Virus record (IMG/VR): IMGVR_UViG_3300049825_001003
Span: 6,133-70,132 of that record
DNA length: 64,000 bases
Reading direction: 5' to 3' (one strand)
Source of the DNA: a virus
The notes beneath the pieces are model-generated. The model did not search any database. It saw nothing but the letters and a program-made list of their open reading frames with translations, and was not told the DNA's origin. This document shows, piece by piece, positions 13,503-34,025 of the stretch (its first letter is position 1; each line of letters opens with the position of its first letter). The position numbers and the translations under genes are program-made.

Positions 13503-13511
13503 GGACTCCAC

Positions 13512-14306: not shown

Positions 14307-14326
14307 AAAAAGAATCGCAAATCCCC

Positions 14327-14353
14327 TAAAGTTCTTCTTTTTTCTTCCGATAA
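14327..14353 (+). promoter_or_regulatory. sigma28/FliA-type promoter
   Basis: TAAA-N15-TCCGATAA, intergenic. Confidence 0.8.
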
Positions 14354-14389
14354 GTCAAATAGGCACTAACAATTCGCCGGGAGGCATTC

Positions 14390-15259: not shown

Positions 15260-15309
15260 TTTTACAAAGGAGTTCTTGTGAGTAGTAATCTGATGAGCGG
15301 TTCTCCAAA

Positions 15310-17316
15310 ATGACCAACAGTTCAAAGGCTAAACGCTTATCAGAAATGCTGGATAGGATGGAGGAGAAGGTTAGGAAGATTAACCCAGATATCTCTCTAG
15401 ATAGAAGTACTTACATAAAACAGAAAGATCTGTGCCGCTGGATAGATTCTAAAGTAGGTGAATTTTATCGCACTCCTAATTCAGTTATCAACGGGTCTGC
15501 ATTCCATCCCGACACTTTACAAGACAGAAAAAAAGCAACTTCTCTGGCAAAGTTTGGCACTGAAAACCCCGCACAAAGCGAAGAGATTATTCGCAAGATA
15601 AAAGAAACTATCTGTAAAAAGTATGGAGAGGGTGGCCATATGAAAAATAGTGACGTCGTGAACAGATATAAAGATACAATGAACGAACGGTATGGTGTTG
15701 ATTATCCTGCACAAAACCAAACCATTCTTAAAAAACAATGGTCCACAAATCTAGAGCGATACGGCCACAGGAGCTCCTTAGGGAATTCCGATGTTGTGCA
15801 AAAGGTGCGTGACACAAATCTCGAGCGGCACGGTTTTAGTTTTCCTGTCCAGAACATCGAGATTAAGGAAAAAATGCAGAAAACTAATCTAGAGAAATAC
15901 GGGACTAGATACCCAATTCTGAATCCAGATGTCATGAAGAAGATAAAGGAGACAAATATAGAAAGGTTCGGGATGGAATACGCCGTAGCCTCCCCCCCAG
16001 TGAGAGCCAAGATAGAAAAATCTCACATTGAGAGAACAGGCTTCAAAAACTCCCTCCAGAATCCTGCTATAAGGGAAGCTATAAAGAAAACGATGCTCAG
16101 CAGGTATGGATCCGAGCATCCGGGTGGAAGCCACGCAATCCAACAGAAGATTCATCAAAAACAAAAAAACACCGGGCCTGAAGTCTACGTAAAGAAGTTT
16201 CTTGTTAATGCCGGAATTGATGTGCGAGACCAGGTTTTCTTGAATGGAAAAATGTGGGATTTAGGAATTTTCAAAAACAATCAGCTCGATCTTATAATTG
16301 AAATAGACGGTGAGTTCCACCACTCGCTTATTTCCGATCCTTACTCTCTCAAGAATCAATTCGTCCCTGATGATACTCGATATTCACGACTTCCTGAGAA
16401 TGTAAAATTCTTGGCAATAGACTCACAGAAAGTGAAGAAGTCGTTTCCAGAAATATCTCGTTTGTTGAATATGGACTGCTCCGATCAGGTGAATGAGATA
16501 GTCACATCCTTAACAGGCAGCCCCTTCCCATTTCCTGCTTATGATTCAAAAAGGATGGCCAAGGACTGGACAAACCTGTGCAAAATGAAACCAATAGATA
16601 AATTCAATAACAAGCTTATGCCTGCTAATTCATTAGTCACTAATTTTCATAAGTCCATTTATTTTTCCAAGGTAGGTAAAAACCCCAGCCCCGCTGAAGC
16701 GTGGAGCGATAAAAAACTACTGAAGAAATGTATTGAGAATAGATTTCTATATGCATCCTCGCTTTCAAGCCAAACTATAGCCAGAGGTTTCGAAAGGAGC
16801 AAGATTGCTCCTAGAGTTACAGTGTTTCAGCCATATCTAGCTAGATGGCTATTGCAAACTTACACACCTGAAGCAAAAATAGTCACAGATCCGTTTTCTG
16901 GATTCTCAGGAAGAATGCTGGGAGCTGCCAGTCTGGGCATGCACTATTACGGTTCTGATATTAGATGTGAAGTAATTGAAGAAAGCCAAAAGATTTCTGA
17001 TTTTCTAAAATTAGAGAATATTTTTCTCTCACAGGTGTCCAGTGAGGCGGCGGTGTTGCCTGATGCCGACACTCTGCTGACTTGCCCACCTTATGGGAAT
17101 AAGGAAGTTTGGTTTCATGGTCAAGATTGCATGTCTGCAGACGATTACATAGACCAATGTTTGTCTAGGTTCAAGGCTAAAACTTATATTTTTGTTATTG
17201 ACAAGACTGTGAAGTACAACGATTTTATAAGACTGTCAATTGACAGAACAAGTCATATAAGTTCAAGTTCTAAAGAATTAGTTGTTGTGATTGAACCTTG
17301 TGAGAAAAAAAATTAA
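15310..17316 (+). mobile_element. Free-standing endonuclease-like gene: 9 x 23-aa KYG repeats + PD-(D/E)xK (Vsr/DUF559-like) nuclease + DNA methyltransferase-like domain
   Basis: Repeats aa 74-280; WDLGI...IEIDGEFHH nuclease motif; DPFSGFSGRMLGA (SAM-binding motif I) and TCPPY (catalytic motif IV-like). Confidence 0.75.
15529..16149 (+). repeat. Nine tandem 69-bp (23-aa) KYG repeats (DUF7487-like)
   Basis: e.g. MQKTNLEKYGTRYPILNPDVMKK / IKETNIERFGMEYAVASPPVRAK; exact 23-aa period. Confidence 0.9.
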
Positions 17317-17325
17317 AAAAAAGAC

Positions 17326-17353
17326 TTGACTTTTGATAATAAAAAGCCGAAAA
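17326..17353 (+). promoter_or_regulatory. Variant promoter upstream of ssb (TTGAC -35, sigma28-like -10)
   Basis: TTGAC-N15-GCCGAAAA, followed by the G-N5-TAGG seen after the sigma28 sites. Confidence 0.5.
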
Positions 17354-17445
17354 GAGCTATAGGAGAGGAACTGATTAATAACAGAGGACTGTTGAGAATT
17401 AAGAAATATTTTTTTACAAACGCATAATAGCAAAGGAAATAGATT

Positions 17446-18450
17446 ATGCAAAGCCCTTTAGATTTGATAGATGGTGATGTGGATTATGACAGAGCTGGCC
17501 AATCGGCAGGCAGCTTCAGGTCGGCAATATTGCGCCTACCGAAAGCCGGTGAAGTATTAATCGGGAAGTTTGTTGTTATACCTGATGGCTCTAGACGTCC
17601 GTACCTTCCGGCACCCTATTACGATTTTATGGTTGGGGATGACCCTACAAAAGATGGTCGTTCTCACTTCTCTCTCAAAATGGTCCAGGCAGATTGTCCG
17701 AAAGACGCTGTCTACTGGGCTCAGATGAAAGCTCGTAAAAAGCTTAAAGAAGAAGGAAAGCAAGACACACGTGAATATAAACGCGCCGAGGCGTTGATTG
17801 CCGCGAATCGTCCTAAGACAGGGGCCCTTCTCTTGTTTGTCGAGAAAGGACAGAAGACTGTAAAACCTCTCTTCATAAAAGAGCAAATGATTCAAGAACT
17901 TTTCGGTGTTAAAGACCACTGGCAAAAACCTGACTCTCCTGGTCTTTTCCGGAAGCTGAAAGAAGAAGGTCATTCTCCTTATGACATGCGCAGCTCCACC
18001 GGATGGATCAAGCTCTATAAGTCGGGCAGTGGCAAAGACACTAAGTTTAATGCAGAGCTTGATCAGCACTCTACCGAAGCAGTGATCAATGGCAAAACTG
18101 TGAAAGTTCGTGCTCCTACTGAACATGAAGTTGACCCTGCAATTATCGAAATGATAAAAGGAGGCAAACTTCCTGACCTCATCACTTTAGCCTCAGACCC
18201 TAAAGAAATGTGGACAAATGATGAGTGTGAAGATTATGCAAAAAATCTCACTATTCCTGACAGGTTCAAGAAGAACAGTAAAGCTGCTGCAGTTGTGCGT
18301 TCATCTCCTGTAGCTGAAGAGAATGACTTGCTCTCTGGTGACTATGCAGATGCTGCTGACGAGGTTACTCAGGCTGTAGTTGCCCCTAAAGCAAAGGCAG
18401 CTCCTGTACAGAAAGTCTCGAGCAGTGATGATTTCGACGATTTATTTTAA
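17446..18450 (+). CDS. Single-stranded DNA-binding protein (gp32-like)
   Basis: KSGSGKDTKF motif, flexible Ala/Pro linker, acidic tail SSDDFDDLF; next to a UvsY-like gene. Confidence 0.75.
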   Translation: MQSPLDLIDGDVDYDRAGQSAGSFRSAILRLPKAGEVLIGKFVVIPDGSRRPYLPAPYYDFMVGDDPTKDGRSHFSLKMVQADCPKDAVYWAQMKARKKLKEEGKQDTREYKRAEALIAANRPKTGALLLFVEKGQKTVKPLFIKEQMIQELFGVKDHWQKPDSPGLFRKLKEEGHSPYDMRSSTGWIKLYKSGSGKDTKFNAELDQHSTEAVINGKTVKVRAPTEHEVDPAIIEMIKGGKLPDLITLASDPKEMWTNDECEDYAKNLTIPDRFKKNSKAAAVVRSSPVAEENDLLSGDYADAADEVTQAVVAPKAKAAPVQKVSSSDDFDDLF

Positions 18451-18460
18451 GGAAAACTAA

Positions 18461-19012
18461 ATGACTGACGTGTTGGAATCTATCTTGTCGGGAAATTTCG
18501 AGGACTCTGGGAAGCCAGTAGGACGCAGCAATTTCTTTGACATTACAAAGTCACCAGTCACCCCACAGCACATTCAGATGCTAGCCCCTTACCTTGCAGC
18601 TATTTCCGACATGGAAACTGCCAATGAGGGGAATGCACCTGGGCTACTTGTCAAGCTTTCCAAGGGCTTGGAATTAGCATCTTCTGCTTGCGCTTCGGCC
18701 ACTTTTCATTACAATAAGGCCAAGTCGAAGCTGAAGAAAATTCAAGGCATCTTCTTTCTCGAGCGATTTTATGAGTATGTTAAAGAACAGGAGGCTTTAG
18801 GAATCAAAATCAAGGAGACTGATTCGTCTCGAGAGCATTACGTTAACACCAGGGATGAAGTAATTACTGCATCTGCTGAGGTTGCCTACTACGAAGCTGT
18901 ACAAGAGCAACTGTCCGGAATGAAAATGACGCTCACCATGGCGATCTCCGGTACAAAAGCAATTGTTTATAGCGCCCGTCATTCTGACAGTCTCTCATCT
19001 TTTTCAAGCTAA
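18461..19012 (+). CDS. Putative recombination mediator (UvsY-like helical protein)
   Basis: All-helical with KETDSSREHYV motif; position after ssb. Confidence 0.5.
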   Translation: MTDVLESILSGNFEDSGKPVGRSNFFDITKSPVTPQHIQMLAPYLAAISDMETANEGNAPGLLVKLSKGLELASSACASATFHYNKAKSKLKKIQGIFFLERFYEYVKEQEALGIKIKETDSSREHYVNTRDEVITASAEVAYYEAVQEQLSGMKMTLTMAISGTKAIVYSARHSDSLSSFSS

Positions 19013-19023
19013 GGAACTTTTCA

Positions 19024-19908
19024 ATGAACTTTAAGAAACTCGCTTTAGGTTTGGTTACTGTTGTCCTCTCTTTGACTTCAGCAGTTGGCTTTGCAGTGCC
19101 TATGAAAGCACAGTATGCAAAATCTAAGCCTACGACATCAGTCGAATATGATGTGAACAACACAGTCACATTGCGTGGCGTCATCAACTCTGCAAGCGTG
19201 TCTAAGGCTGTAGAAGGCATTGCTTTGTCTAAAAGTGATGAAGTCTACTTGTTCATCCAGAGCCCAGGAGGATCGATTATTGATGGAATGACTTTGGTCA
19301 ATTTCATTCGCTCTACAGACAAGAAAGTTATCTGCGTTGCTGACATTGCAATCTCGATGGCATTCGTGATTTTACAATCGTGCGACGAGCGATTGAGTAC
19401 AGCAAACTCCATCACTATGCAGCACCACGCAAGCTTTGGGGCTCAACGTGGTGAGTCTCCTAACGTTGTGAACTTTGTAAACTTCTTGTTAAAGATGGAC
19501 AAAGAGTTAGACATCGCTCAAGCTGCGCGCATTGGCATCACAGTCGAGAAATTCCAGAAGAACATTGACCGTGACTGGTGGTTGTTTGGCTCAGACGTTT
19601 CTAAAGAAAATGTTACTGACCGGACCGTAACTGCTGTTTGTAGCCGAAAACTCCTTGAGTCCACAGTTACCGAGAAGATCTCTGTGATGGGAGGCTTGTT
19701 TGAGGTGACCTTGACTTGGAGTGGATGTCCTGAAATCTTGGACCCTAAGAGTATTGAAATTACTAAGGAATTTACTAATCAGTTCGGGTACCGTGAGCGA
19801 GTGGCTGTAACTGGTGAAACACGTGTGAATATCGAACAAGAGTTATTGGCACGTCGATTCGTAAGCGCGAAGCTTGGCTTCGGTGAGCAACTCACAGTAG
19901 CTCCTTAA
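19024..19908 (+). CDS. clpP: ClpP/crotonase-fold serine protease with N-terminal signal peptide
   Basis: IQSPGGS, AISMAF (catalytic Ser), MQHHAS (His), DRDWWL; Sec-type leader MNFKKLALGL...AVGFA. Confidence 0.85.
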   Translation: MNFKKLALGLVTVVLSLTSAVGFAVPMKAQYAKSKPTTSVEYDVNNTVTLRGVINSASVSKAVEGIALSKSDEVYLFIQSPGGSIIDGMTLVNFIRSTDKKVICVADIAISMAFVILQSCDERLSTANSITMQHHASFGAQRGESPNVVNFVNFLLKMDKELDIAQAARIGITVEKFQKNIDRDWWLFGSDVSKENVTDRTVTAVCSRKLLESTVTEKISVMGGLFEVTLTWSGCPEILDPKSIEITKEFTNQFGYRERVAVTGETRVNIEQELLARRFVSAKLGFGEQLTVAP

Positions 19909-19933
19909 GGGAATCTGGACTAGAATTTGACTT

Positions 19934-19961
19934 AAAGGCCTTCAGGGCCTTTTTTCTTTTT
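19934..19961 (+). terminator. Rho-independent terminator
   Basis: AAAGGCC-TTCAG-GGCCTTT stem followed by T-run. Confidence 0.8.
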
Positions 19962-19973
19962 AAGGAGCTTTTC

Positions 19974-20630
19974 ATGTTTGAAATAACATTGATGCCAAGT
20001 GGAATTGTCTGTGTTAGGTCAGATGCGGACGACCGAGTTTCTAGAGCTTTTAAGAGGGTTCAGGAGTACTACGAAAATCCTGTCATGGCTGGAAGGCTGG
20101 ACATTACTAGAAAGGACATTGATGCCTGGTGGGCTGATATTTCGGAAACTCCATATGAAGAGTACTGGGGAGGCTTTAACATTCCTGGCTCTGTGTGGAA
20201 ATCCTTTCAGGAAAACTACCCAGAGAAGAACATGAGCTTAATAGAAAAAGTACTGTTCTTGGAAGTTAGAATCCGCTGTCTCGAACCTTCCTACGTCATA
20301 GGCGTAAATGGACTGGGACTGAACGATGGGCAGGTTGAGGAACTTCTGAACCACGAACTTTCCCACGCTCTTTTTTCTGTCAATAGTGATTATCGGGAAG
20401 CAGCTCTGGCATTAATCGCTTCAAGCGAGCCTGAAGTTCTGGATGTTTTAGTCCCAGTCCGGTCAGATTTAATCGCAATGGGGTATGGTTCTGAAGTTCT
20501 GGATGATGAGATCGTTGCCTATCTAGCTACAGGTGGTATAGAGATGGTCTCGAACAATGAAGAGTATCGACATATACTAGAACCTTTATCTGCTCAACTA
20601 GCTGAATTATTTCAGAAAACTATTTCTTAG
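19974..20630 (+). CDS. Hypothetical protein with HExxH zinc-peptidase motif
   Basis: NHELSHA plus downstream DDEIVAY; AAGGAG RBS. Confidence 0.65.
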   Translation: MFEITLMPSGIVCVRSDADDRVSRAFKRVQEYYENPVMAGRLDITRKDIDAWWADISETPYEEYWGGFNIPGSVWKSFQENYPEKNMSLIEKVLFLEVRIRCLEPSYVIGVNGLGLNDGQVEELLNHELSHALFSVNSDYREAALALIASSEPEVLDVLVPVRSDLIAMGYGSEVLDDEIVAYLATGGIEMVSNNEEYRHILEPLSAQLAELFQKTIS

Positions 20631-20650
20631 AAAAACCTGCCAAGAACCTC

Positions 20651-20677
20651 TTAAGTTTTCTCAAAACACTCCGATAA
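20651..20677 (+). promoter_or_regulatory. sigma28/FliA-type promoter
   Basis: TTAA-N15-TCCGATAA (TTAAGTTT -35), intergenic. Confidence 0.75.
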
Positions 20678-20721
20678 GTAAAATAGGCTTTTCAGTAATA
20701 GACCTAACAAGGAGATTGATT

Positions 20722-20877
20722 ATGGCTGCGTTAACGTTATTTTTTGTTGCTCTTGTAACTCTAGGGCTCGGGATTGTCTTCGGGATTGTAGTTTGTGTTA
20801 TTGAGGCAGTACTGGAACAGAAAAACGTCGAGCAAGAAAGAACCTGTAATAAGCTAATTAATTCACATCATGACTAG
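20722..20877 (+). CDS. Small membrane protein (51 aa, not in ORF track)
   Basis: AAGGAG RBS; MAALTLFFVALVTLGLGIVFGIVVCVI hydrophobic segment. Confidence 0.6.
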   Translation: MAALTLFFVALVTLGLGIVFGIVVCVIEAVLEQKNVEQERTCNKLINSHHD

Positions 20878-20903
20878 AACAAATATAAAACAAGGAGACA
20901 TGT

Positions 20904-21236
20904 ATCAAAACAATCATAGACAAAAGAAACACTGTCTGTAAGATCTACAACTCAGAAGAGATTTCTCGAATTGCAATTATTGAGTTCAATAGGAACATTG
21001 CTGAAATAACAGGCAAAATCATTATTGAATTTAAAGATGGGACTCTTGCGGTCCCTGAGGCCATAAACTCAGAAGAGACTCGCTTCCTGTATCTAAAAAC
21101 CATCAATGGTAGACAAGTCGTTGGTGAAGAAGAAGATGGATGTTTTATAGAAGAGTACTATTCAGAGCACCGGGATAAATATCCTGACGACTTCGAAAGA
21201 TTGCTTAAAGAGTTCAGGATTCCTGACGATGAGTAG
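20904..21236 (+). CDS. 110-codon open frame with no canonical start (ATC start or 1-nt frameshift after ATG 20900)
   Basis: AAGGAG at 20892-20897; frame IKTIIDKRN...RIPDDE* fills the gap to the next RBS. Confidence 0.45.
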   Translation: MKTIIDKRNTVCKIYNSEEISRIAIIEFNRNIAEITGKIIIEFKDGTLAVPEAINSEETRFLYLKTINGRQVVGEEEDGCFIEEYYSEHRDKYPDDFERLLKEFRIPDDE

Positions 21237-21251
21237 AAAAGGAGGATCTTC

Positions 21252-21512
21252 ATGACTTCATCTCTAGAACTGCCGACCATTTACCACGTTATAGATATTC
21301 GCAAAAAGAGGCACCTCATGACAACTCTGTCTCTTGATTATGCCAGAGACTGCCTGCAACGCCTTGGGAATCCTGCTGATATGGCGATTTATCGCAACGA
21401 TGAGACTGTCAAGTCCATTCTAAAACCTGATGCACACTTTTTCATGTTCTGCCACAGCCTTGCAGAATTTAAGCATAAATTATCAAAAATAGAATATGAG
21501 TTAATAAAATGA
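21252..21512 (+). CDS. Hypothetical protein
   Basis: GGAGG RBS; ATGA overlap with next gene. Confidence 0.65.
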   Translation: MTSSLELPTIYHVIDIRKKRHLMTTLSLDYARDCLQRLGNPADMAIYRNDETVKSILKPDAHFFMFCHSLAEFKHKLSKIEYELIK

Positions 21513-21730
21513 CACAAGATGAAGTTGATAATATAGTCAAAGAAGAGTGCAGTGTACTTAATAACGTCATCTCTCTATCGGCTGTGAAGCACGAGAGGCA
21601 GCGCAAGGCTGCTGTAAAGGATCCTGAAAGCCTTCCTGTCGACAATCTGTCTTTCCGAATTGAGAGAATAAAGAAGTCAGTCGATCGAATAAATGATCTA
21701 ATGGCAGAACTCAGAGGAGCGGGAAAATGA
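21509..21730 (+). CDS. Hypothetical coiled-coil protein
   Basis: Coupled by ATGA overlaps on both sides. Confidence 0.65.
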   Translation: MTQDEVDNIVKEECSVLNNVISLSAVKHERQRKAAVKDPESLPVDNLSFRIERIKKSVDRINDLMAELRGAGK

Positions 21731-22191
21731 TATTCCTAGGTCTTGGTGTGTTTGATGCAGGGTATTATGCCCAAATCCAGGCAAAGTTGCTCACAGCAAC
21801 TCATCAGTCTGTCAGGTATCAGTCCGAAACTTACACCAGAGACCTGGTCGGCCTCCGGTACAATCTCAAGCTCAATCACTTTGTTTCAGTAGCCAGTGAG
21901 TTGAACGTAGGCTATGAGCACCACTACGACTCCAAGCTCTACGCCAGGTCCTACGCTGTCACCATTCCCGAGTTCGGGATTCAGACAAACCAGGACTATA
22001 TAAATGTAAAAATGTTATGGACTCCAGCAAAATACTTTGTTAAGCTCTCGCGCGAACCAAAGTTCACTACTCATTTGTTCCGGGCAGAACCTAGTGTGTC
22101 TATAGGCATATTCATAAACCTAGAACATACTCTTTGGATTCCGAAACCAGTAAATGTGAACTATCTGAACAAAAAGAAAAAACTTCCTTAA
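21727..22191 (+). CDS. Hypothetical beta-rich protein
   Basis: 154-aa ORF, alternating aromatic/hydrophobic strands. Confidence 0.6.
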   Translation: MIFLGLGVFDAGYYAQIQAKLLTATHQSVRYQSETYTRDLVGLRYNLKLNHFVSVASELNVGYEHHYDSKLYARSYAVTIPEFGIQTNQDYINVKMLWTPAKYFVKLSREPKFTTHLFRAEPSVSIGIFINLEHTLWIPKPVNVNYLNKKKKLP

Positions 22192-22214
22192 GGTTTTTAC
22201 GATTATTCCGATAA
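22188..22214 (+). promoter_or_regulatory. sigma28/FliA-type promoter
   Basis: TTAA-N15-TCCGATAA. Confidence 0.7.
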
Positions 22215-22262
22215 GTCTTTTGAGCTTCTAAACTGTCTTCTTTTCAAGAAAGTGAGATTCCT

Positions 22263-23462: not shown

Positions 23463-23479
23463 AAACCAAGGAGATTCTC

Positions 23480-23881
23480 ATGGGCGTCGACATTCATGAC
23501 ATTTTACAAGTAAGAAAAGATGGTGTCTGGAAGACAGTCTGTCAGAATCTCTTCAATGGAAGAAGCTACAAGCTGTTTAGTGTCTTGGCTGGAGTGCGCA
23601 GTATTGACGATGATGAGCAGTTGAAGCCCTGTGCAGGACTTCCTAAGGATTATGACTTTTACATGTCAGGCCAGGACACTCTAGCCTTTGATGGTGAATA
23701 CTGGATGGGGTTCTTTAACTTCACTTATTACACTCTGGCCGAACTTACAGTCTATAAAGAAAGACTTGAGAGGGGAGAAGACGGAGAGGTGTCCTTGGAG
23801 TACATCTTCCTCACTGCCTATGAATATGCACCTGGCTGTAATCCTGAGGACATTCGATACGTGTGTGGATTCGACGCTTAA
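23480..23881 (+). CDS. Conserved phage hypothetical protein
   Basis: MGVDIH...RSYKLFSVLAGVR pattern; AAGGAG RBS. Confidence 0.7.
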   Translation: MGVDIHDILQVRKDGVWKTVCQNLFNGRSYKLFSVLAGVRSIDDDEQLKPCAGLPKDYDFYMSGQDTLAFDGEYWMGFFNFTYYTLAELTVYKERLERGEDGEVSLEYIFLTAYEYAPGCNPEDIRYVCGFDA

Positions 23882-23885
23882 TTGC

Positions 23886-23912
23886 TAAAGTCTTTCTGTG
23901 GTTTGCCGATAA
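23886..23912 (+). promoter_or_regulatory. sigma28/FliA-type promoter
   Basis: TAAA-N15-GCCGATAA, perfect consensus. Confidence 0.85.
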
Positions 23913-23954
23913 GAGAGATGTAGGCGGCAGTTAAGGAAAAAGGACTGATTATAA

Positions 23955-24185
23955 ATGAGAAAATTTCGCATTGTCCAGGTAAGTGCCTCTATGACCTACG
24001 TCGACAAGAAGAGAGAAGGAATATGTGTCCGAACTTTTCTACATCCTGACGGATCTTTTCAGATGGAGAGTAAGGATGCTGCTCTTTTTCATTTAGAAGA
24101 TGCAGCTATCTTGTTAAGAATTGACGAAGATTGGTATTGCCAGGACACGAGACATCCAAACTCCCCTCTTACAAAAGAGAATTAA
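23955..24185 (+). CDS. Hypothetical protein
   Basis: 76-aa ORF with AGGA RBS after a promoter. Confidence 0.6.
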   Translation: MRKFRIVQVSASMTYVDKKREGICVRTFLHPDGSFQMESKDAALFHLEDAAILLRIDEDWYCQDTRHPNSPLTKEN

Positions 24186-24204
24186 TTGGAAGGCAGGAAT
24201 CACT

Positions 24205-24414
24205 GTGACTAAAATTGAACACACGTACCAATCTGCAACACTTGCGCTTCGGGACATTGAAAAAATATTGAAATACATTACAGATAATATGATGTATGTT
24301 CCAAACGATGGACTCGCTCACGACGAACTCACAGCTATCTACAAGAGTCTTATTAGATGGCAAAAAGAATTAGTTAAAATATCCACACAGCGTGCATTTG
24401 AGGTGACAAAATGA
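24205..24414 (+). CDS. Hypothetical protein
   Basis: GTG start after AGGA; ATGA overlap with next gene. Confidence 0.5.
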   Translation: MTKIEHTYQSATLALRDIEKILKYITDNMMYVPNDGLAHDELTAIYKSLIRWQKELVKISTQRAFEVTK

Positions 24415-24794
24415 CTGAGAAATTTAAAGTTGGCGACAGGGTTTACGATATTTTAAAAGGTATTGGCACTATCAAGCGAAATCCTGACTGTGGTGTATAT
24501 ACCTGGGTGGTAATATTTCCTCTCGCGTCTGCCCGGACGTACACTGAGCAGGGGTTTTTAACCGAATATGATGTCAATCCCGCTCTCCTGACACTCACAG
24601 AAGCGAGGGCTAAAGGGTATGACGTGCCGAAGGAGAAGGTTACACATAAAGATGTTGGGTACAGAAAAATATTAGAAGACGGAACTCTCTCCAGGTGCTG
24701 GAGAAGTGCAGAGAATCTAGTAGCTCTCGGGATAGATCCGACGGATAGAACTAATTACGCTGAAGTGGTCACGACATGGGAAGAGGAGATTTAA
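24411..24794 (+). CDS. Hypothetical protein (SH3-like FKVGDRV N-terminus)
   Basis: GAGGTG RBS; FKVGDRVYD motif. Confidence 0.65.
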   Translation: MTEKFKVGDRVYDILKGIGTIKRNPDCGVYTWVVIFPLASARTYTEQGFLTEYDVNPALLTLTEARAKGYDVPKEKVTHKDVGYRKILEDGTLSRCWRSAENLVALGIDPTDRTNYAEVVTTWEEEI

Positions 24795-24795
24795 A

Positions 24796-25677
24796 ATGAA
24801 ACACGTTCTCATGTCCGCTTGCTTACTTTTTATGTCCGCCTGTGGAAAACCTGACACGAAATCAACACCTTCCGATATGGAAGTATTGTCCGAACGTGTC
24901 CGGAATTTAGAATTGTCTTACTGCAAGACCGGTGAAGTTCAATGGGTATGCCAGCGCGAGGCTGACGGTGACGCTGCTCTCTGGAATGGACTCACTTGTC
25001 TAGGCACTGGAGATTCAGTCGCTTGCTCAAACATGAAGTCATTTATAGAAGAAGATGGCAGACCTCGCCGCACTCCAGCCAGGCGTGGTACTTATGAGGA
25101 AGATTCATACTCACGGGATATGTTCCTAGGCTTCCTTGCCGGCACCCTTAAGACCCGCGATGTAAATACTTTCAATAGAGTATTGAATTACCTAGAAGCT
25201 AACAATGAAAAACTTTGCCCAATCAGTGAAGATGGTAGGTGCAATATGACTTATGCCACTAGAACTTTAGCGGTTAAAGTCGGTAAGGAAATAAAATCAC
25301 TGCATCCATTGCTTGCAAAATGGGGTGATGGGGATTTAAACATTCAATTCTTTGCCCAGTCAAAAGTAGTGCGCCCTGGATATGAATCGCATTTGGTTGG
25401 AGTAAGCCTTTGGCTCCTTAAAGAAATGCGTCAAATGGACGCCAGAGGTGAATCCGCAGCAGAAGCCCTGCACAAATCTCAGTCTAGGAACGCCTTCTTT
25501 GCGTGGTTGTCTGGGGATAATGCTTCTGCTGCAAACTTAGCTGCAGGTCAAGTCCCTAATGTGAAGACCGAAGCTCATAACCGGTGGACCTTTAATACTC
25601 GAGACGATGAAGAGCCTTGGACTGGCTCTATCGGGTGGGAATTTAAAGTACTACTTAATTTGCTGGAGAGAAAATGA
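24796..25677 (+). CDS. Lipoprotein, Cys-containing helical domain of unknown function
   Basis: Lipobox LLFMSA-C; GAGGAG RBS. Confidence 0.7.
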   Translation: MKHVLMSACLLFMSACGKPDTKSTPSDMEVLSERVRNLELSYCKTGEVQWVCQREADGDAALWNGLTCLGTGDSVACSNMKSFIEEDGRPRRTPARRGTYEEDSYSRDMFLGFLAGTLKTRDVNTFNRVLNYLEANNEKLCPISEDGRCNMTYATRTLAVKVGKEIKSLHPLLAKWGDGDLNIQFFAQSKVVRPGYESHLVGVSLWLLKEMRQMDARGESAAEALHKSQSRNAFFAWLSGDNASAANLAAGQVPNVKTEAHNRWTFNTRDDEEPWTGSIGWEFKVLLNLLERK

Positions 25678-25916
25678 CCAGACGAGTAAATAAAAGTGAC
25701 AAGGTTGTAGGTGCAGGACTTCTCAGAGATGACATAGATTTGCTCCAGCGCATCCAAATTCGCTTAAAAACCATGGAGAGTCTGTCGGTATTCAACAGCA
25801 CCGGAACTTCTCATTCTCTGGCTGAGGCCAATAAATATCTTGCAAAAGCGCATGCGCTTTTGTTATGGGCTGAAGTATCACTACTGGAGGGCTTAGGCAA
25901 TGAACAATCTCTATAA
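25674..25916 (+). CDS. Hypothetical protein
   Basis: ATGA-coupled 80-aa ORF. Confidence 0.55.
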   Translation: MTRRVNKSDKVVGAGLLRDDIDLLQRIQIRLKTMESLSVFNSTGTSHSLAEANKYLAKAHALLLWAEVSLLEGLGNEQSL

Positions 25917-26481
25917 AACAGGATTTCTCTTCCTGTCTCTTGTTGGGTGCCAGAACATCACGCAGCAGCAATATGACTGGGCCGTGCAGGCCAATGTAAA
26001 GCTTCGGGAGGAAGTTGCAACTCTGAAAAAACAATCGGGAAAATGTGAAGTTCCTGAAAAAGAAACCGTTAAGAACCTCACTATTCCTTCAAAAGTACCT
26101 TCCAAGCAAGGAGAAAAGTCTATTCAGTCGGAAGGTCCTGAGGAAGTTGCTGCTCATCTAGGAACTAACGCCACTTCTGCAGAAGCTAAACTGGACGCTG
26201 CTGTGGAATATTTTAAAGCATCCAAAAAAGACATTGATGAAAAAACAGCAGAGTGTCTGAAATGGATCGTTGCCGAGACTTTCGATCCTCCACTTAATGA
26301 ACGTGCCGCATCAAAATTGTGTAGCGAGTCTGCTGATTTCATGCTAGAAAAGAAAGACCTGAATTACATCGCGTGCGTAAATCGATTTATAGCGTCTCCA
26401 GCTCATTTTTACTGGGGAGACATCGAGACAGACTGCCTTAAAGATTCGAGTAAGATTCCTCCAACGCCTTCTCCTAAATAA
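25900..26481 (+). CDS. Putative lipoprotein
   Basis: Lipobox FLSLVG-C; GGAGG RBS. Confidence 0.65.
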   Translation: MNNLYKTGFLFLSLVGCQNITQQQYDWAVQANVKLREEVATLKKQSGKCEVPEKETVKNLTIPSKVPSKQGEKSIQSEGPEEVAAHLGTNATSAEAKLDAAVEYFKASKKDIDEKTAECLKWIVAETFDPPLNERAASKLCSESADFMLEKKDLNYIACVNRFIASPAHFYWGDIETDCLKDSSKIPPTPSPK

Positions 26482-26492
26482 AGGGTTTTATT

Positions 26493-26951
26493 ATGAAATT
26501 GCCAGTACGTCCCGCACATCCGCTTTCCTATTGCGAGCTGCCGGAGGGCTGGGAAGGCACCGCTCTTGACCTCCTAAATCTTAAAGACGAGCCTCTTGAT
26601 TATATTCTTGAAGATGTTCTTTATCCGGGGTTTTTAGAAGATGAGGTATGTCATCAGTTTACTCTTAAGTGTAAAGAGCGTCTCATGTCGAGGCTTGCTA
26701 TCTTGGAATACAGCACTCAACCGTTCATGGATGAGGGGGAACAGGAATGCTCCTATGAAGAGTTTCTGGCCGGGTATACACGAGACATAGACGCTGCCAT
26801 CCTTGAAAGGAACGCCCAGAAGGCTTTCTGGTTGGCCGCAGGTACCTTTATGGACCCTGACGAGGAGTCATATTATGATTTTGACACATTAGAAGCGCTT
26901 GTTAAGGATCTGAAAGAGTTAATTTCTAAACATTATGAGGTTTCATTATGA
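26493..26951 (+). CDS. Hypothetical acidic protein
   Basis: 152-aa ORF in operon. Confidence 0.65.
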   Translation: MKLPVRPAHPLSYCELPEGWEGTALDLLNLKDEPLDYILEDVLYPGFLEDEVCHQFTLKCKERLMSRLAILEYSTQPFMDEGEQECSYEEFLAGYTRDIDAAILERNAQKAFWLAAGTFMDPDEESYYDFDTLEALVKDLKELISKHYEVSL

Positions 26952-27175
26952 AAAGTTTTCAAATCATCTGCATCTATTTGGCTACAATTCCCTGCATAGC
27001 TTTTGCTAAAGACAAGGAAACTCCGAACACCAAGCCTCCTACGACTTGTGCTGTGATTGCCAAGCCTAAAGGCAAGCAGAAATCGCCTGACCAGGACACT
27101 ACAGCCACAAAGCCAGGCGTCTGCTCAGAGAAGCCTCAAAAGCCAAAAGGCAAAGTGAAAGCTAACAATAACTGA
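26948..27175 (+). CDS. Small secreted basic protein
   Basis: Signal peptide ending AFA; Lys/Pro-rich mature part. Confidence 0.6.
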   Translation: MKSFQIICIYLATIPCIAFAKDKETPNTKPPTTCAVIAKPKGKQKSPDQDTTATKPGVCSEKPQKPKGKVKANNN

Positions 27176-27186
27176 GGATTCTAAAA

Positions 27187-27786
27187 ATGCAAACCTTCTT
27201 CTCTTCAGATCATCATTTTGGGCACGCAAACATTATCAAGTACTGCAATCGCCCTTTCAAAGACGTTGAAGAAATGAATGAGGAGATGGTTGCCAGGTGG
27301 AATTCAAGAGTAGGAGTAGACGACTGTGTAATGTACTTAGGAGATTTCTCCCTGTCTGAAGCTGCAGTCATCCAATACTCACATCGCCTAAATGGCAAGA
27401 AAGTACTGATTCCTGGAAATCATGACCAATGTTTTCCCCACAAGCGCTCACCTGCAAAAATAGAAAGAGCGACAGCTCTTTATGAGAAGAACGGCTGGAC
27501 TGTTTATCCTCTGGACTGTCACATGACAAACACTCAAGGAACTTTCCGGCTCTGCCATTTCCCTTACCTCACTCAGAAAGAGAATGAGGAATACGATGTC
27601 CGGTATAAGCAGTATCGGCCTGAAAGAACAGATGAGAGAGAGCTTCTTTTTCATGGTCACGTTCATGGAACTTGGAAAACACTGACAGGAATGGTCAATG
27701 TAGGAGTGGATGTCTGGGACTTCTACCCTGTGACTATTCAAGAGATTCTGGATTTTAAATTCTCTGAGCACTCCAAATACTACTAA
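27187..27786 (+). CDS. Calcineurin-like phosphoesterase
   Basis: SDHHFGH, LGDFS, GNHD, CHFP, HGHVH, NVGVD motifs. Confidence 0.9.
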   Translation: MQTFFSSDHHFGHANIIKYCNRPFKDVEEMNEEMVARWNSRVGVDDCVMYLGDFSLSEAAVIQYSHRLNGKKVLIPGNHDQCFPHKRSPAKIERATALYEKNGWTVYPLDCHMTNTQGTFRLCHFPYLTQKENEEYDVRYKQYRPERTDERELLFHGHVHGTWKTLTGMVNVGVDVWDFYPVTIQEILDFKFSEHSKYY

Positions 27787-27810
27787 AGAGTTTCTTCTAA
27801 ACACCGATAA
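27784..27810 (+). promoter_or_regulatory. sigma28/FliA-type promoter
   Basis: TAAA-N15-ACCGATAA. Confidence 0.8.
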
Positions 27811-27856
27811 GCAAAATAGAAGAACATTTCTCTTCTAACAGCAAAAAGGAACAGTC

Positions 27857-28285
27857 ATGCCTAAAGACAACAGGAAGATACTAGACGCAGTTATTCGTGC
27901 ATTCACAGTCACTAAGAAAGACGTGATTTTGTTTGTGGTGAGTATGGTTGTTATATTTGGGAGCATCATCGCGATTGACAAGATCTATCAGCCTGTCGAC
28001 AACAAGACATTAGAATGCACTGATTTTATTCAGAGCTTTGCTTTATCGAAGGCAGCTGATGAGGCTATAGTTCCGGTGCAGTCTACTCCCGATGGTGGAG
28101 TCATGGTTGGAATCACAAGCACTACCAAACTAAGAATGCTCGTTATTGTGAATGACAAAATTGCCGAAGATTTACGCAGTCGACTGACTTTAAAACAGAA
28201 AGGCATTTGCATCCACAGCGCCACTGGATGGAAATACAATGTTTTTAATGCTGAAGTGGAAATCAATAATAATCAAACGTTGTAA
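27857..28285 (+). CDS. Membrane-anchored hypothetical protein
   Basis: One transmembrane helix (VILFVVSMVVIFGSIIAI). Confidence 0.65.
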   Translation: MPKDNRKILDAVIRAFTVTKKDVILFVVSMVVIFGSIIAIDKIYQPVDNKTLECTDFIQSFALSKAADEAIVPVQSTPDGGVMVGITSTTKLRMLVIVNDKIAEDLRSRLTLKQKGICIHSATGWKYNVFNAEVEINNNQTL

Positions 28286-28290
28286 ATAAG

Positions 28291-28308
28291 CAGTTCCATA
28301 TGGAACTG
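28291..28308. repeat. Perfect 18-bp palindrome, possible protein-binding site
   Basis: CAGTTCCATATGGAACTG; right arm repeated imperfectly at 28328-28343. Confidence 0.7.
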
Positions 28309-28342
28309 AAAACTTTCAAGTGCCGATTGGAACTAAAACTTC

Positions 28343-28594
28343 ATGAGCTACCAGAAACGCAAAAAAGCAAAATGGTATTTAAGACCAGCGTATATCGATA
28401 AGTCGCCAAAGCAGGTTAAAAAATTGACCTTCTGGCGGCGAATCGGCGTTGTCATTGACAGGGCTAAGTGTTCATTAGGCTTTCACAATGAGAGGACTGT
28501 TGCTCAATACAGTGGTAGGATTTTCTCCTATTGCCTTTGCTGTGGCAAAAAAGGCTCTCGAAAAGCTGCGAAAAAACTTGTTGACAACAATTAG
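28343..28594 (+). CDS. Small basic Cys/His protein
   Basis: CSLGFH...CLCCG motif. Confidence 0.55.
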   Translation: MSYQKRKKAKWYLRPAYIDKSPKQVKKLTFWRRIGVVIDRAKCSLGFHNERTVAQYSGRIFSYCLCCGKKGSRKAAKKLVDNN

Positions 28595-28608
28595 AAAAAC
28601 AATAGTCT
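28581..28608 (+). promoter_or_regulatory. sigma70-type promoter
   Basis: TTGACA-N16-TAGTCT with upstream A-tract. Confidence 0.55.
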
Positions 28609-28706
28609 GTCAAAGCAATCAACTTTCTTCTCTCTCTTCCTTAAAGGAGTTTTTTAATGAGTATTGACGGGGGTACAAAGTTCATGTTCTCCAGGGTTGG
28701 TATTCA

Positions 28707-30356
28707 ATGAAAGCACAAAAATGGACAAAAGAATCTTTCCAGGCATGGTTAGATGAAAATATGTTAAAGATTCAAGTCATTGAGTTTAATGGATATCAAG
28801 AAAAATCCCTGCTTAGACATGATCAGTATGGGAATTGGTACAAATCAGTAAAACAGGCACTGTCAGACATGAAAAGAAGGGGACATGTGTCTCATCCATC
28901 ATCAGGAACATTACGTCTCAAACAAACCATGCTGGCCAAGTATGGGGTAGAAAGCCCATCTCAATTACCTGACTATAAAGAAAAAACAAAAAAAACCAGC
29001 CTAAAAAGATATGGCGTTGATAATCCTGCCAAAAGTCCTGAAATTCAAAAAAAAATTAAACAAACTAATTTAGAAAAATATGGAACTGAGTGCGTTTTTG
29101 AAAATAAAAACATAAAACAGCAAATCCGTGCAACAAACTTAGAAAAATATGGACACGAGCACGCTCTGTCATCCCCAGACATTAAACAGAAAGCTAAAGA
29201 TGCCTATTTTTCGAAATACGGCGTTGAGCATGTAAAGGACATTCCGGGAAGTACAGAAAAGGCAAAAAAAACTAATTTGGAAAAATACGGCACTGAGTGC
29301 ACTCTTAATAGACCTGGCATTAGAGAAAAAATCAAGCAAGATTGTTTAGAAAAACATGGGGTGGAGTATTTTTATCAAACATCAGAATTCAAAGAAAAGT
29401 CTGCAAAAACTAACATGCAGAAATATGGAGTAGAGAACATCTTTCATTCCAAGGATTTTCAGGATGCTGCTTTTTTAATCAAGCAAAATAACGGGCAGAC
29501 AAGAAAGTCCAAGGCTGAGATTGAGATACTGGAGTTCTGTAAAGCTACAATTGACCCGGATACGTCATCCACTATCGTGAAAAACAAAGAAAGGAATTTT
29601 CAGATTGACGTTAAAATCCCAAGTAAAAACATATGCATAGAATTCAATGGATCTTATTGGCATTCTGAGGCAAATTCAAAAATCTACCCAAGGTATCATT
29701 TAGAAAAAACTTTGGCTTGTCAAAGCCAAGGACTGAGACTTGTTCACATATGGGAGCATGAATGGAAAGAAAAGAAACCTCAAATATTGTCTTATATAAA
29801 ATCAATATCTGGAATTTTCGAAAGGAGAATCTTTGCCAGAAAAACTACGTGCAAGCTGGTAGATGCAATTACTGCCAATGAATTCTTGGAAGGGAACCAT
29901 CTTTTGGGCAAAGTGACCCACTTGCATGCTCATGGGCTGTTCTTCAATGAAGAGTTGGTAGGCCTGGCTACTTTAGGAAGACATCACAGGAAAACAGACA
30001 TACTTGTACTTTCCAGAATGTCCTTTAAAAGTGGGGTGCAGATAATCGGAGGAATGTCAAAGCTATCTCAGGTTGTATTAATCAACTCTTCCTCTGATCA
30101 GATCATTACTTGGGCAGACAGGCGACTTGGGGCACTAGAGGGGTATCTGCAATCTGGGTGGTCAGTTGAAGAGGAGATGCCTCCTGATTATTTTTACTGG
30201 GATGACAAGAACAAGAAGGCTGTTTCTAAGCAATCAAGACGTAAATCTGCAGTTGGCACCCCAGAAGGAATGACCGAGCACGAACATGCTTTACAAGACA
30301 GACTTTACCGGATCTATGATTGTGGGAAAATTCGTCTGGTATTAAAAAAACCTTGA
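28707..30356 (+). mobile_element. Free-standing endonuclease-like gene: 8 x 23-aa KYG repeats + PD-(D/E)xK nuclease + Hef-like/GNAT (Mom-like) C-terminal domain
   Basis: Repeats aa 71-254; IDVKIP...IEFNGSYWH...HIWEHEW nuclease; FLEGNHLLG, LSRM, GGMSKL, TWADRR, IYDCG C-terminal domain. Confidence 0.8.
28917..29468 (+). repeat. Eight tandem 69-bp (23-aa) KYG repeats (DUF7487-like)
   Basis: e.g. IKQTNLEKYGTECVFENKNIKQQ / IRATNLEKYGHEHALSSPDIKQK. Confidence 0.9.
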
Positions 30357-30407
30357 TTTTATTTTTTAATATGATAACACTGAACCTGTTAAATAAGGAG
30401 AATCTGA

Positions 30408-32064: not shown

Positions 32065-32068
32065 TTCA

Positions 32069-33062: not shown

Positions 33063-33114
33063 TCAGTTTTAGCCAATGTGGCTAATTGTTTCCTTAACTT
33101 AGACAGGAGTTTTT

Positions 33115-33519: not shown

Positions 33520-33575
33520 AATTCCACTTGCAGCAATTATCTGCAAATCTATTTGCACTTACAGGATTTAAAAAA

Positions 33576-33965: not shown

Positions 33966-33989
33966 AGATTCTCTAAAAACCTCCGATAA
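33963..33989 (+). promoter_or_regulatory. sigma28/FliA-type promoter heading the exonuclease-primase unit
   Basis: TAAA-N15-TCCGATAA. Confidence 0.8.
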
Positions 33990-34025
33990 GTAAAATAGGT
34001 TCTCAAACTTACTTCGGAGGTTTTT

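Follow-up and report, generated by a model that had tools for sequence, protein, structure and literature searches.

Two viral genes share a four-part plan around a 23-residue repeat array

The window, the 64,000-nucleotide stretch of viral DNA analysed here as a whole, carries two genes, A and B, each consisting of an N-terminal module, a repeat array, a nuclease and a DNA-modifying domain (Table 1). A preliminary description of the sequence had proposed two open reading frames with one common plan, a PD-(D/E)xK nuclease behind each array and C-terminal enzymes that differ between the two. All three points are borne out: both frames are present with the same domain order, a Vsr-like core with conserved catalytic residues follows the array in A and B, and the C-termini are predicted to adopt an amino-methyltransferase fold (A) and a GNAT fold like that of phage Mu Mom (B). 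AlphaFold2 modelled both proteins with good confidence (mean pLDDT 85.0 for A and 89.3 for B), and catalytic residues are kept in 33-40 of 40 aligned relatives in all three types of enzymatic domain (nuclease, Mom-like and methyltransferase). GC content is 0.402 in gene A and 0.381 in gene B compared with 0.429 in the window.

Table 1. Features of genes A and B and their surroundings (positions in the window).
Feature	Position	Strand	Protein	Basis or detail
Gene A: Hef-like/EDxHD-type endonuclease, DUF7487 array, C-terminal methyltransferase domain	15310..17316	+	668 aa	ORF, Pfam, PHROG
A, N-terminal module, helix and small beta-sheet	15310..15507	+	aa 1-66	AF2 secondary structure, Cys columns
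A, array of nine 23-aa repeats (DUF7487)	15508..16167	+	aa 67-286	Net charge +15
A, PD-(D/E)xK (Vsr-like) nuclease core	16168..16425	+	aa 287-372	D317, E331, D333, H338
A, helical connector without family assignment	16426..16809	+	aa 373-500	Net charge +11
A, Rossmann SAM-methyltransferase domain	16810..17316	+	aa 501-668	Motif I DPFSGFSG, motif IV-like T-C-P-P-Y
Gene B: full-length Hef-like homing endonuclease, Mom-like C-terminus	28707..30356	+	549 aa	PHROG 3339, tblastn
B, N-terminal alpha-beta3-alpha module without Cys ligands	28707..28895	+	aa 1-63	
B, array of eight 23-aa repeats (DUF7487)	28896..29492	+	aa 64-262	Net charge +12, GC 0.351
B, EDxHD/Vsr-like nuclease	29493..29810	+	aa 263-368	D301, E312, H319, H331 invariant
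B, Mom-like GNAT domain	29811..30356	+	aa 369-549	Foldseek, hhalign, residue conservation
gp32-like ssDNA-binding protein gene (lead), downstream of A	17446..18450	+		Atlas feature score 0.91 to gp32-named clusters
UvsX/RecA-like recombinase gene, downstream of B	30408..31580	+		PHROG 97 E 1.5e-27; Pfam RecA E 1.7e-5, below cut-off
Cassette, gene A and flanks, missing in a related genome of another run	15290..17460	+		Joint 15289 to 17461

Both genes are new members of a named homing nuclease family

The plan of the two genes is not new: A and B are additions to a named, very large family of mobile homing nucleases that has received little study. B matches the PHROG 3339 profile 'homing endonuclease' with an E-value of 4.1e-97, its residues 155-547 aligning to positions 134-534 of the 536 in the profile. 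The match of A to PHROG 3339 is partial and lies in the array region (E 3.8e-26), and PHROG 12131, likewise named 'homing endonuclease', is also matched in part. A tblastn search with B matched 431 phage records, 75 of them at a coverage of at least 80%, including F-LimVIII of phage LIMEstone1. The F-LimVIII gene stands by itself on the opposite strand, with the tail tube and tail sheath genes on either side, and is termed Hef-like in PMC3296691; the link between Hef and DUF7487 is drawn from annotation and from that same text. Coverage of at least 80% of A is reached by none of 84 phage records, and homologues of A at 88-99% coverage are found in metagenomes.

The predicted nuclease of both genes belongs to the EDxHD family (Vsr-like PD-(D/E)xK), typified by I-Bth0305I, where Hef-type enzymes were also placed by Taylor et al. 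(2011; PMC3239194). Residues D301, E312, H319 and H331 of B are present in 40 of 40 aligned relatives, and the B-family profile matches the I-Bth0305I nuclease domain (PDB 3r3p) with an E-value of 2e-4. For A, no nuclease was found in a PDB search with the family profile; its nuclease region forms an alpha/beta core in the AlphaFold2 model, with D317 kept in 39, E331 in 33, D333 in 38 and H338 in 39 of 40 relatives. The Pfam model MTES_1575 matches both genes weakly (E 0.012 for A) and is found in 13 of 40 relatives of A.

The DUF7487 array is regular in structure and diverged in sequence

Both arrays are matched by Pfam PF24308 (DUF7487), A at 129.1 bits (E 3e-37) and B at 132.9 bits (E 2.1e-38), the gathering score being 27 bits. 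The whole record contains six DUF7487 matches, every one of them within the two reading frames. Eight anchors of the form [LIMF]x[KRS][YHFT]G are present in B and all seven spacings between them are exactly 23 residues, while A contains seven such anchors with a spacing of 23 in five of six cases and of 69 (three times 23) in the other, yielding nine in-register units. In the AlphaFold2 models, the unit is made up of a 15-residue helix, a 4-residue loop and a 3-residue helical turn. The nine and eight 'exact' repeats of the preliminary description are thus in register as claimed, but their sequences have diverged and TRF detects no DNA-level tandem repeat in either array. Its fixed scaffold and variable patch hold in so far as positions 14-16 vary, but at least seven of the 23 positions are variable.

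Statistics over 1811 repeats from 238 proteins show conservation at positions 1, 3, 5 and 9; positions 7, 10 and 11 are likewise conserved but belonged to the detection pattern. Entropy exceeds 2.7 bits at seven positions (2, 4, 14, 15, 16, 18 and 19). Positions 14-16 are variable within a restricted alphabet, with N (.33), Y (.21), H (.17), S (.10) and C (.06) at position 14, and position 17 is commonly Q (.58) or K (.14). The four commonest 14/17 residue pairs account for 923 of the 1811 repeats, 750 distinct tetrads are found at positions 14-17, and the number of repeats per protein ranges from 2 to 17. Among orthologues, the array and the N-terminus are the fastest-evolving parts: identity between A and orthologue P0002 is 60% in the array and 84% in the nuclease, and the corresponding values for B and orthologue P0123 are 70% and 86%. 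Patch positions 12-17 are 79-96% identical to B in three close orthologues and 6-25% identical in two distant ones.

At 50% identity, DUF7487 occurs in at least 17,484 protein clusters; the array is found in phages, with structural look-alikes in giant viruses. The Atlas also contains DUF7487 clusters with HNH in 85% of 59 members or with DUF559 in 69% of 377 members. Our literature search returned no description of a function for the nuclease-associated 23-residue repeat. A role in DNA targeting is plausible, since the array carries a net positive charge, changes faster than the catalytic domains and is also reported in fusion with HNH nucleases; the loop patch, retained in close but not in distant orthologues, is compatible with such a role. 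Most relatives additionally possess an N-terminal 4-Cys (zinc-ribbon) or HTH DNA-binding module beside the array, which suggests that recognition is shared with another domain. The 4-Cys motif is kept in 54-74 of 83 representatives per column and detected by pattern in 202 of 374 proteins; A retains one of the four family Cys columns and B none of the Cys ligands.

Each 23-residue repeat could in principle read one base or short step through its loop patch, which would make the array a re-targetable modular code. The conserved scaffold, the limited alphabet of the patch, the few dominant 14/17 pairs and the wide range of repeat numbers are in line with such a code, as is the retention of the B patch in close orthologues and its loss in distant ones. 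However, retention in orthologues with loss in paralogues would agree with any constraint on function or structure, neither array shows a repeat at the DNA level, and high entropy extends over at least seven positions rather than two, with hundreds of different tetrads. The N-terminal modules of most relatives also speak against a code, as does I-Bth0305I, where specificity resides at the cleavage centre and not in distal contacts, although that enzyme lacks a DUF7487 array. We consider a modular code quite unlikely. The same low likelihood applies to its structural version, a DNA-reading solenoid in which a basic stripe (K1-T5-K/R9) would lie on the backbone while patch 14-17 specifies bases.

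The C-terminal domains resemble DNA-modifying enzymes

The closest fold match in the PDB for the C-terminus of B is phage Mu Mom (8bv8; Foldseek E 2.1e-7, target TM 0.55), followed by GNATs, and hhalign aligns B with Mu Mom at an E-value of 0.0014 (probability 17.7%). B residues H398, R437, S451, D471, R473 and Y480 align to Mu Mom H58, R111, S124, D149, R151 and Y159, all reported as active-site or essential residues in PMC13219725, and the B residues have counterparts in 34-40 of 40 relatives. The Pfam Mom model (PF25680) does not match B at E<=0.1 and matches 16 of the 40 aligned relatives at E<=0.01.

The C-terminus of A most closely resembles SAM methyltransferases of the Trm11, MnmM, METTL5 and RsmD type (Foldseek E about 4e-6). 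It matches PDB 5e71 (E 6e-4), Pfam N6_N4_Mtase at 21.2 bits (E 3e-4), which is under the 26.7-bit cut-off, and, weakly, the PADLOC type II MTase models (MTase_II E 1.9e-6). Motif I is invariant or nearly so among 40 relatives. The canonical motif IV of exocyclic-amino SAM methyltransferases is (D/N/S)PP(Y/F); A carries Cys in place of the D, N or S, and this Cys is present in 36 of 40 relatives. Across 83 diverse representatives of the family, a Mom match is found in five and a DNA methylase match in one. Many family members consist of array and nuclease without a modifier domain.

The conservation of Mom active-site or essential residues and of methyltransferase motifs makes it plausible that the fused modifier would mark self. 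Alternatively, the C-terminal domains could be idle, serving as extra DNA-binding or base-flipping parts, or the array could bind a partner other than duplex DNA, for example RNA or protein. B misses the Pfam Mom model, A stays below the Pfam cut-off and has a non-canonical motif IV, and Mom needs charged tRNA (PMC13219725), which would fit an RNA-binding role for some part of the protein. The near-complete retention of Mom counterparts in B relatives and the near-invariant motif I of A argue against idle domains. Since the array accompanies a methyltransferase, a Mom domain, no modifier at all or HNH, the common factor is DNA cleavage, which argues against a non-DNA partner. Either alternative is very unlikely.

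Gene A is absent from a related allele

The preliminary description had placed both genes upstream of recombination genes and had likened them to homing endonucleases. Gene B indeed ends 51 nt upstream of a recA/uvsX-like gene. The gene downstream of A gives a lead, not proof, for a gp32-like ssDNA-binding protein: its product has no Pfam or PHROG match, and the Atlas feature score is the sole basis of the assignment. The homing analogy is supported by the PHROG 3339 membership, the EDxHD nuclease and an allele free of the gene A cassette.

This allele is found in run X2, an independent metagenome from another sample and study, where one contig joins the two flanks of the cassette directly, omitting 2171 nt. 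The junction contig has a low depth (4.41) and 83 letters on its shorter side, and it was aligned at an 80% likeness threshold, a setting prone to foreign matches. Six letters lie between the flanks and end in ATG, so that the gp32-like gene would start directly at the junction. X2 also holds near-identical pieces of the neighbouring genes (0-6 differences in 151 nt) and shows some depth inside gene A, in three of four bins. The cassette-free allele supports gene A as a mobile free-standing element. For gene B, no element-free joint was seen and no relatives close enough for comparison of the uvsX locus were found.

The two proteins might instead be single-chain restriction-modification weapons, with the nuclease broadly attacking host or competitor DNA and the modifier guarding the entire phage genome. 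This is how Mom-nuclease fusions of jumbo phages, predicted to be single-chain restriction-modification units, are read by Iyer et al. (2021; PMC7824862). The same text lists five momylating enzymes in phage PA5oct, and the structural matches of B include a PA5oct protein named 'putative homing endonuclease' (E 1.4e-28). The conserved catalytic residues of the modifiers and the weak PADLOC matches of A point in the same direction. Yet the presence/absence polymorphism in X2 is bounded exactly by the gene A cassette, relatives occupy sites flanked by conserved genes, the usual setting of free-standing homing genes, and many members lack a modifier. A pure weapon is therefore unlikely, and the homing and restriction-modification readings are mutually compatible.

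Proposed mechanism and significance

We favor the explanation that both are probably free-standing homing-endonuclease genes of the Hef-like EDxHD branch in a large uncultured phage. The protein would bind a long stretch of DNA via its N-terminal module and the positively charged helical array, and the nuclease would cut the element-free allele beside a conserved replication or recombination gene in a co-infecting relative. The target neighborhood would be gp32-like for A and uvsX-like for B, and recombinational repair would copy the cassette into the cut allele. The C-terminal domain, a putative amino-methyltransferase in A and a putative acyltransferase of the Mom type in B, most likely modifies DNA where the protein binds or close by. 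This would protect the carrier genome in the manner of single-chain (type IIG-like) restriction-modification enzymes. The array may best be viewed as a portable nuclease-associated module for DNA tracking and targeting rather than a proven base-by-base code.

The window thus adds two selfish nuclease genes to a named family, one of which (A) is seen as a presence/absence polymorphism. The fusion of DNA-modifying domains to the array may account for the way in which a homing nuclease leaves its own genome uncut. Should the array read sequence modularly, Hef-like enzymes would be naturally re-targetable nuclease-modifier fusions and, as a new scaffold made of protein only, of practical interest for programmable DNA targeting. 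An array that acts as a low-specificity DNA ruler would still explain the reach of these enzymes to long targets.

Comparison with known systems

Among known systems, B is comparable to the Hef-like F-LimVIII of Dickeya phage LIMEstone1, which combines array, nuclease and Mom-like C-terminus, is free-standing by conserved genes and shares ca. 30% identity over 85% of B by tblastn. B differs from Hef-like copies of isolated phages in this low identity of only ca. 30% and in its Cys-free N-terminus. In gene A, the Mom-like domain of Hef-like enzymes is replaced by the helical connector and methyltransferase.

I-Bth0305I is similar to B in its Vsr-like nuclease core, in which acidic and His residues are conserved, and it targets a phage recA gene, while B adjoins a recA/uvsX-like gene. 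Unlike A and B, it is intron-encoded and contains two NUMOD-like motifs and no modifier domain. DUF7487 has no match at E<=1 in the phage of I-Bth0305I, and the 60-bp footprint of this enzyme is consequently not attributable to the array.

The Mom-REase fusions of jumbo phages also join a Mom domain to a REase-fold nuclease; a repeat array is not mentioned in the available part of that account (PMC7824862), and activity of any fused Mom-nuclease form is not reported in the literature searched. Phage Mu Mom, in contrast to B, is a stand-alone enzyme and acts genome-wide.

TALE, PPR and PUF proteins, like the DUF7487 array, contain helical units of constant length arranged in tandem, in which a variable patch is set in a conserved scaffold. 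Their units are 33-36 residues long with two or three helices, whereas the DUF7487 unit has 23 residues and one long helix, is diverged at the DNA level and has no hypervariable residue pair. Near-identical repeats of the TALE type are ruled out by the TRF result, the seven high-entropy positions and the 750 patch tetrads.

The type IIG enzyme BpuSI (PDB 3s1s) has a PD-(D/E)xK nuclease, a helical connector and an amino-methyltransferase in one chain, and the same order of domains is predicted for A. Foldseek aligns the A model with BpuSI over 525 columns (E 4.7e-5) at an rmsd of 17 Å, indicating that the domains match and their arrangement does not. In contrast to type IIG enzymes, A has no C-terminal target-recognition domain, its chain ending with the Rossmann domain, and the array and a small module precede the nuclease.

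Two genes join a DUF7487 repeat array and a nuclease to different modifier domains

The window is part of an IMG/VR record of 70,132 bases with an estimated completeness of 43%. Its two ORFs of interest, genes A and B (Table), were recovered as first described, and the 23-residue repeats reported for both were confirmed with the anchor pattern [LIMF]x[KRS][YHFT]G. Gene B contains eight anchors with all seven spacings equal to 23 residues and eight units in register, while gene A contains seven anchors, spaced by 23 residues in five cases and by 69 in one, corresponding to nine units in register. Both arrays match the Pfam family DUF7487 (PF24308; E = 3e-37 for A and 2.1e-38 for B) and no further DUF7487 gene was found in the whole record. 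The N-terminus and array of the two proteins are 31% identical (BLASTP, E = 3e-30), and no BLASTP alignment is obtained between their later domains. Tandem Repeats Finder detected no DNA-level repeat in either array, indicating that the repeats are old and diverged. GC content is 0.402 in A, 0.381 in B and 0.351 in the B array, compared with 0.429 for the window. Promoter-like sites occur at chance level (31 versus 28.4 expected); terminator-like sites exceed expectation, with none being informative on A or B.

Table. Genes A and B, their annotated parts and neighbouring genes
Feature	Position	Strand	Product length	Assignment
Pentapeptide-repeat gene, two genes upstream of A	13512-14306		264 aa	Pfam Pentapeptide, E 2.7e-21
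ORF upstream of A	14390-15259
Variable segment in this ORF	14919-15149
Gene A	15310..17316	+	668 aa	N-terminal module, DUF7487 array, nuclease, methyltransferase
A, N-terminal module	15310-15507
A, motif IV position	17083-17097		aa 592-596	T-C-P-P-Y
gp32-like gene	17446-18450		334 aa	Atlas feature score 0.91 to gp32 ssDNA-binding protein clusters
ClpP-family protease homologue	19024-19908		294 aa	Pfam CLP_protease, E 2.8e-18; hydrophobic N-terminus
Phosphoesterase gene, upstream of B	27187-27786		199 aa	PHROG 547, E 4e-44; weak Pfam Metallophos_2
Gene B	28707..30356	+	549 aa	N-terminal module, DUF7487 array, nuclease, Mom-like GNAT domain
B, N-terminal module	28707-28895
UvsX/RecA-like gene	30408-31580

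The product of the gene downstream of A carries an acidic C-terminal tail and has no Pfam or PHROG match. Its probable identity is a highly divergent gp32.

Predicted structures point to a Mom-like domain in B and a methyltransferase in A

AlphaFold2 models were generated from alignments of 40 sequences each, picked manually out of the 120 best homologue matches, and reached a mean pLDDT of 89.3 for B and 85.0 for A. In each predicted repeat unit, a 15-residue helix leads into a 4-residue loop whose first residue is the invariant Gly; a helical turn of 3 residues and a single linker residue complete the unit. In both models, a small module of helix and beta-sheet precedes the array and an alpha/beta nuclease core follows it. 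The domain after the nuclease in B has phage Mu Mom as its top PDB match (8bv8, E = 2.1e-7), with many GNAT acetyltransferases ranking next. In gene A the overall plan is shared, but a methyltransferase takes the place of the Mom-like domain: its nuclease is followed by a helical connector and then by a predicted Rossmann domain with Trm11, MnmM, METTL5 and RsmD-type methyltransferases as top matches (E about 4e-6). Searching the A-family profile against the PDB returned methyltransferases only, and the entire A chain aligns with the type IIG enzyme BpuSI over 525 columns (E = 4.7e-5) at an rmsd of 17. Complex prediction with two copies of B residues 263-549 gave a score of 0.00 against a mark of 0.42, which is non-informative on dimerization.

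The putative nuclease residues are highly conserved in both families. D301, E312, H319 and H331 of B are each found in 40/40 aligned sequences, and in A the corresponding counts are 39/40 for D317, 33/40 for E331, 38/40 for D333 and 39/40 for H338. Motif I of the A methyltransferase, D-P-F-S-G-x-S-G, is almost invariant across the 40-sequence alignment. Canonical amino-methyltransferases normally possess D, N or S at the motif IV position, which is occupied by Cys in A and in 36/40 relatives. As judged from sequence, this Cys is a variant that may mark a distinct subfamily or chemistry. For the C-terminal block of the B family, hhalign against Mu Mom gave an E-value of 0.0014 at a probability of just 17.7% and paired Mom H58, R111, S124, D149, R151 and Y159, described as active-site or essential residues in PMC13219725, with B H398, R437, S451, D471, R473 and Y480. 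These residues are present in 40/40, 40/40, 34/40, 35/40, 35/40 and 35/40 relatives, respectively. Mom Y59 has no counterpart, the position being L, I or V in B and its relatives. The conserved catalytic residues fit an active modifier domain. According to PMC13219725, Mom modifies adenine N6 in duplex DNA using Gly-tRNA(Gly). The preliminary description proposed that the fused modifier marks self, an idea already in print: Iyer et al. predicted a restriction-modification logic for Mom-REase fusions (PMC7824862). Our literature search found no paper describing the methyltransferase variant or the repeat array, which may appear in the supplements of PMC3239194 and PMC7824862, and none on DUF7487 by name.

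A and B are divergent members of a very large family

B matches the PHROG family phrog_3339 'homing endonuclease' end to end (E = 4.1e-97) as well as phrog_559 'HNH endonuclease' (E = 7.3e-51). B-like genes were identified by tblastn in 431 phage records including Dickeya, Salmonella, Campylobacter, Klebsiella and Vibrio phages and jumbo coliphages; 75 of these cover at least 80% of B, all at less than 60% identity. One of the matches is F-LimVIII of phage LIMEstone1, described as one of four 'Hef-like' free-standing endonucleases (PMC3296691). Taylor et al. (2011) assigned Hef-type enzymes and a Corynebacterium glutamicum protein to the Vsr-like 'EDxHD' family (PMC3239194), with which our control genomes agree, as PF24308 was matched in C. 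glutamicum alone. Structural matches in BFVD comprise endonucleases of PA5oct and Campylobacter phage CP21 along with zinc-ribbon proteins of Marseillevirus, an iridovirus and Klosneuvirus. No full-length match to A was found in isolated phages, 0/84 records reaching 80% coverage. In metagenomes, 2372 of 8000 scored proteins match A at E ≤ 0.001, many over 88-99% of its length, and 5619 proteins match B. Pfam N6_N4_Mtase is detected in 29/40 aligned relatives of A, and Mom and GNAT in 16/40 and 8/40 aligned relatives of B.

An exhaustive search with the B array alone yielded 17,484 clusters (50% identity) at E ≤ 1e-3; tightening the cut-off to E ≤ 1e-10 left 9,456. We scanned 83 of 138 newly listed representatives with Pfam, taking three of every five. 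DUF7487 is present in all 83, a Pfam nuclease in ten (MTES_1575 in seven, DUF559 in two and DUF1064 in one), Mom in five, a DNA methylase in one and assorted HTH families once each. Across the alignment of these representatives, conservation reaches at least 90% at the D and E columns of the nuclease. Atlas clusters pair DUF7487 with HNH, carried by 85% of 59 members, or with DUF559, carried by 69% of 377. Overall, A and B add new, divergent members to a known, very large family, with gene A representing a less described methyltransferase variant.

A metagenomic contig looks like an element-free allele of gene A

Public contigs, among them those of metagenome runs X1 and X2, were placed on positions 13000-32500 at a likeness threshold of 80. 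X1 is a possible source run and non-independent; X2 stems from another sample and study. X2 pieces across the region show 0-6 differences per 151 nt, with more distant pieces also present. One X2 contig joins 15289, located 30 nt past the stop of the upstream ORF, to 17461, located 15 nt inside the gp32-like ORF. It skips 2171 nt and carries six other letters in between that end in ATG. The entire gene A cassette is consequently absent from the X2 relative, whose gp32-like gene would start at the joint and differ in its first five codons. The joint is represented by a single contig with a depth of 4.41 and 83 letters on its shorter side, and looks like the element-free allele of a free-standing homing gene. 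X2 also has some depth inside gene A itself. No comparable X2 joint was seen for gene B. Other X2 joints within or linking the arrays (28999 to 16987, 29086 to 29050 and 29086 to 29044), which appear in the between-letters table only, were set aside as evidence, other DUF7487 genes being their probable source. Low X1 depth over 22765-30576 is a placement gap and uninformative.

In a separate X2 contig of depth 3, whose shorter side spans 52 letters, the 229 nt of the variable segment within the ORF upstream of A are replaced by 34 other letters.

Close relatives sought via neighbouring genes and megablast were not found, and positions 14000-34000 have no megablast match among phage records. 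Searches for UvsX-like loci returned one viral contig (L001, 37% identical) and one metagenomic contig of 1953 nt (L003, 42% identical), and the gp32-like search for related loci gave no match. L001 has no 550-aa ORF upstream of uvsX but is too distant to count as an element-free allele.

The array is most simply read as DNA-targeting

We collected 1811 in-register repeats from 236 homologous proteins plus A and B; the strict pattern gave none in 15 of these 238 proteins. Anchor spacing is 23 in 1375 cases, followed by 46 (121), 19 (43) and 69 (21), with 0 to 17 copies per protein (median 8). Conserved positions are K1, K3, T5 and K/R9 together with L7, Y10 and G11, the last three lying within the search pattern. 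Helix geometry would place K1, T5 and K/R9 on one face. Variability peaks at positions 2, 16, 19, 15, 14, 18 and 4 (2.7-3.25 bits). In the loop and turn patch the alphabet is restricted but combinatorial, with N, Y, H, S or C at position 14 and Q or K at position 17. Positions 14-17 form 750 distinct tetrads, and 923 of the 1811 repeats carry one of four 14/17 pairs. In orthologues, array and N-terminus evolve faster than the enzyme domains: A and its orthologue P0002 share 60% identity in the array, 84% in the nuclease, 80% in the connector and 73% in the methyltransferase, and B and its orthologue P0123 share 70% in the array and 86% in the nuclease. Over patch positions 12-17, three close orthologues are 79-96% identical to B and two distant homologues 6-25%, figures based on small numbers of cells per position (24 and 16, respectively).

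The array carries a net charge of +15 in A and +12 in B. Based on this charge, the pairing with unrelated nuclease folds and the fast evolution, a DNA-targeting role is the simplest reading of the array. A TALE-like code, as initially proposed, does not follow from array charge, nuclease partnership and fast evolution. The repeat units fall short of near-identity, with no single position or pair of positions prominent. The parts and lifestyle assigned in the preliminary description hold, while the repeat code is unproven. What the 23-residue array recognises is a question for the whole family and not peculiar to this window. The EDxHD enzyme I-Bth0305I is described as a homodimer with a footprint of about 60 bp and highest specificity over the central 14 bp (PMC3239194). 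Its phage encodes no DUF7487 protein, which rules out its biochemistry as a model for the array.

Most relatives possess an N-terminal four-Cys motif, with Cys at the four columns in 54-74 of the 83 representatives and a CxxC...CxxxC pattern ahead of the first repeat in 202/374 proteins; others carry an HTH or C2H2 finger at this position. A keeps one of four Cys of the zinc-ribbon-like motif, and B has gaps at both Cys columns of its subfamily. The four-Cys residues are, on these alignments, lost from both proteins, with the predicted beta-sheet module retained in each. The prevalence of such N-terminal domains among relatives suggests that recognition is probably shared between the array and the N-terminal domain, as it likewise is in other modular phage homing enzymes.
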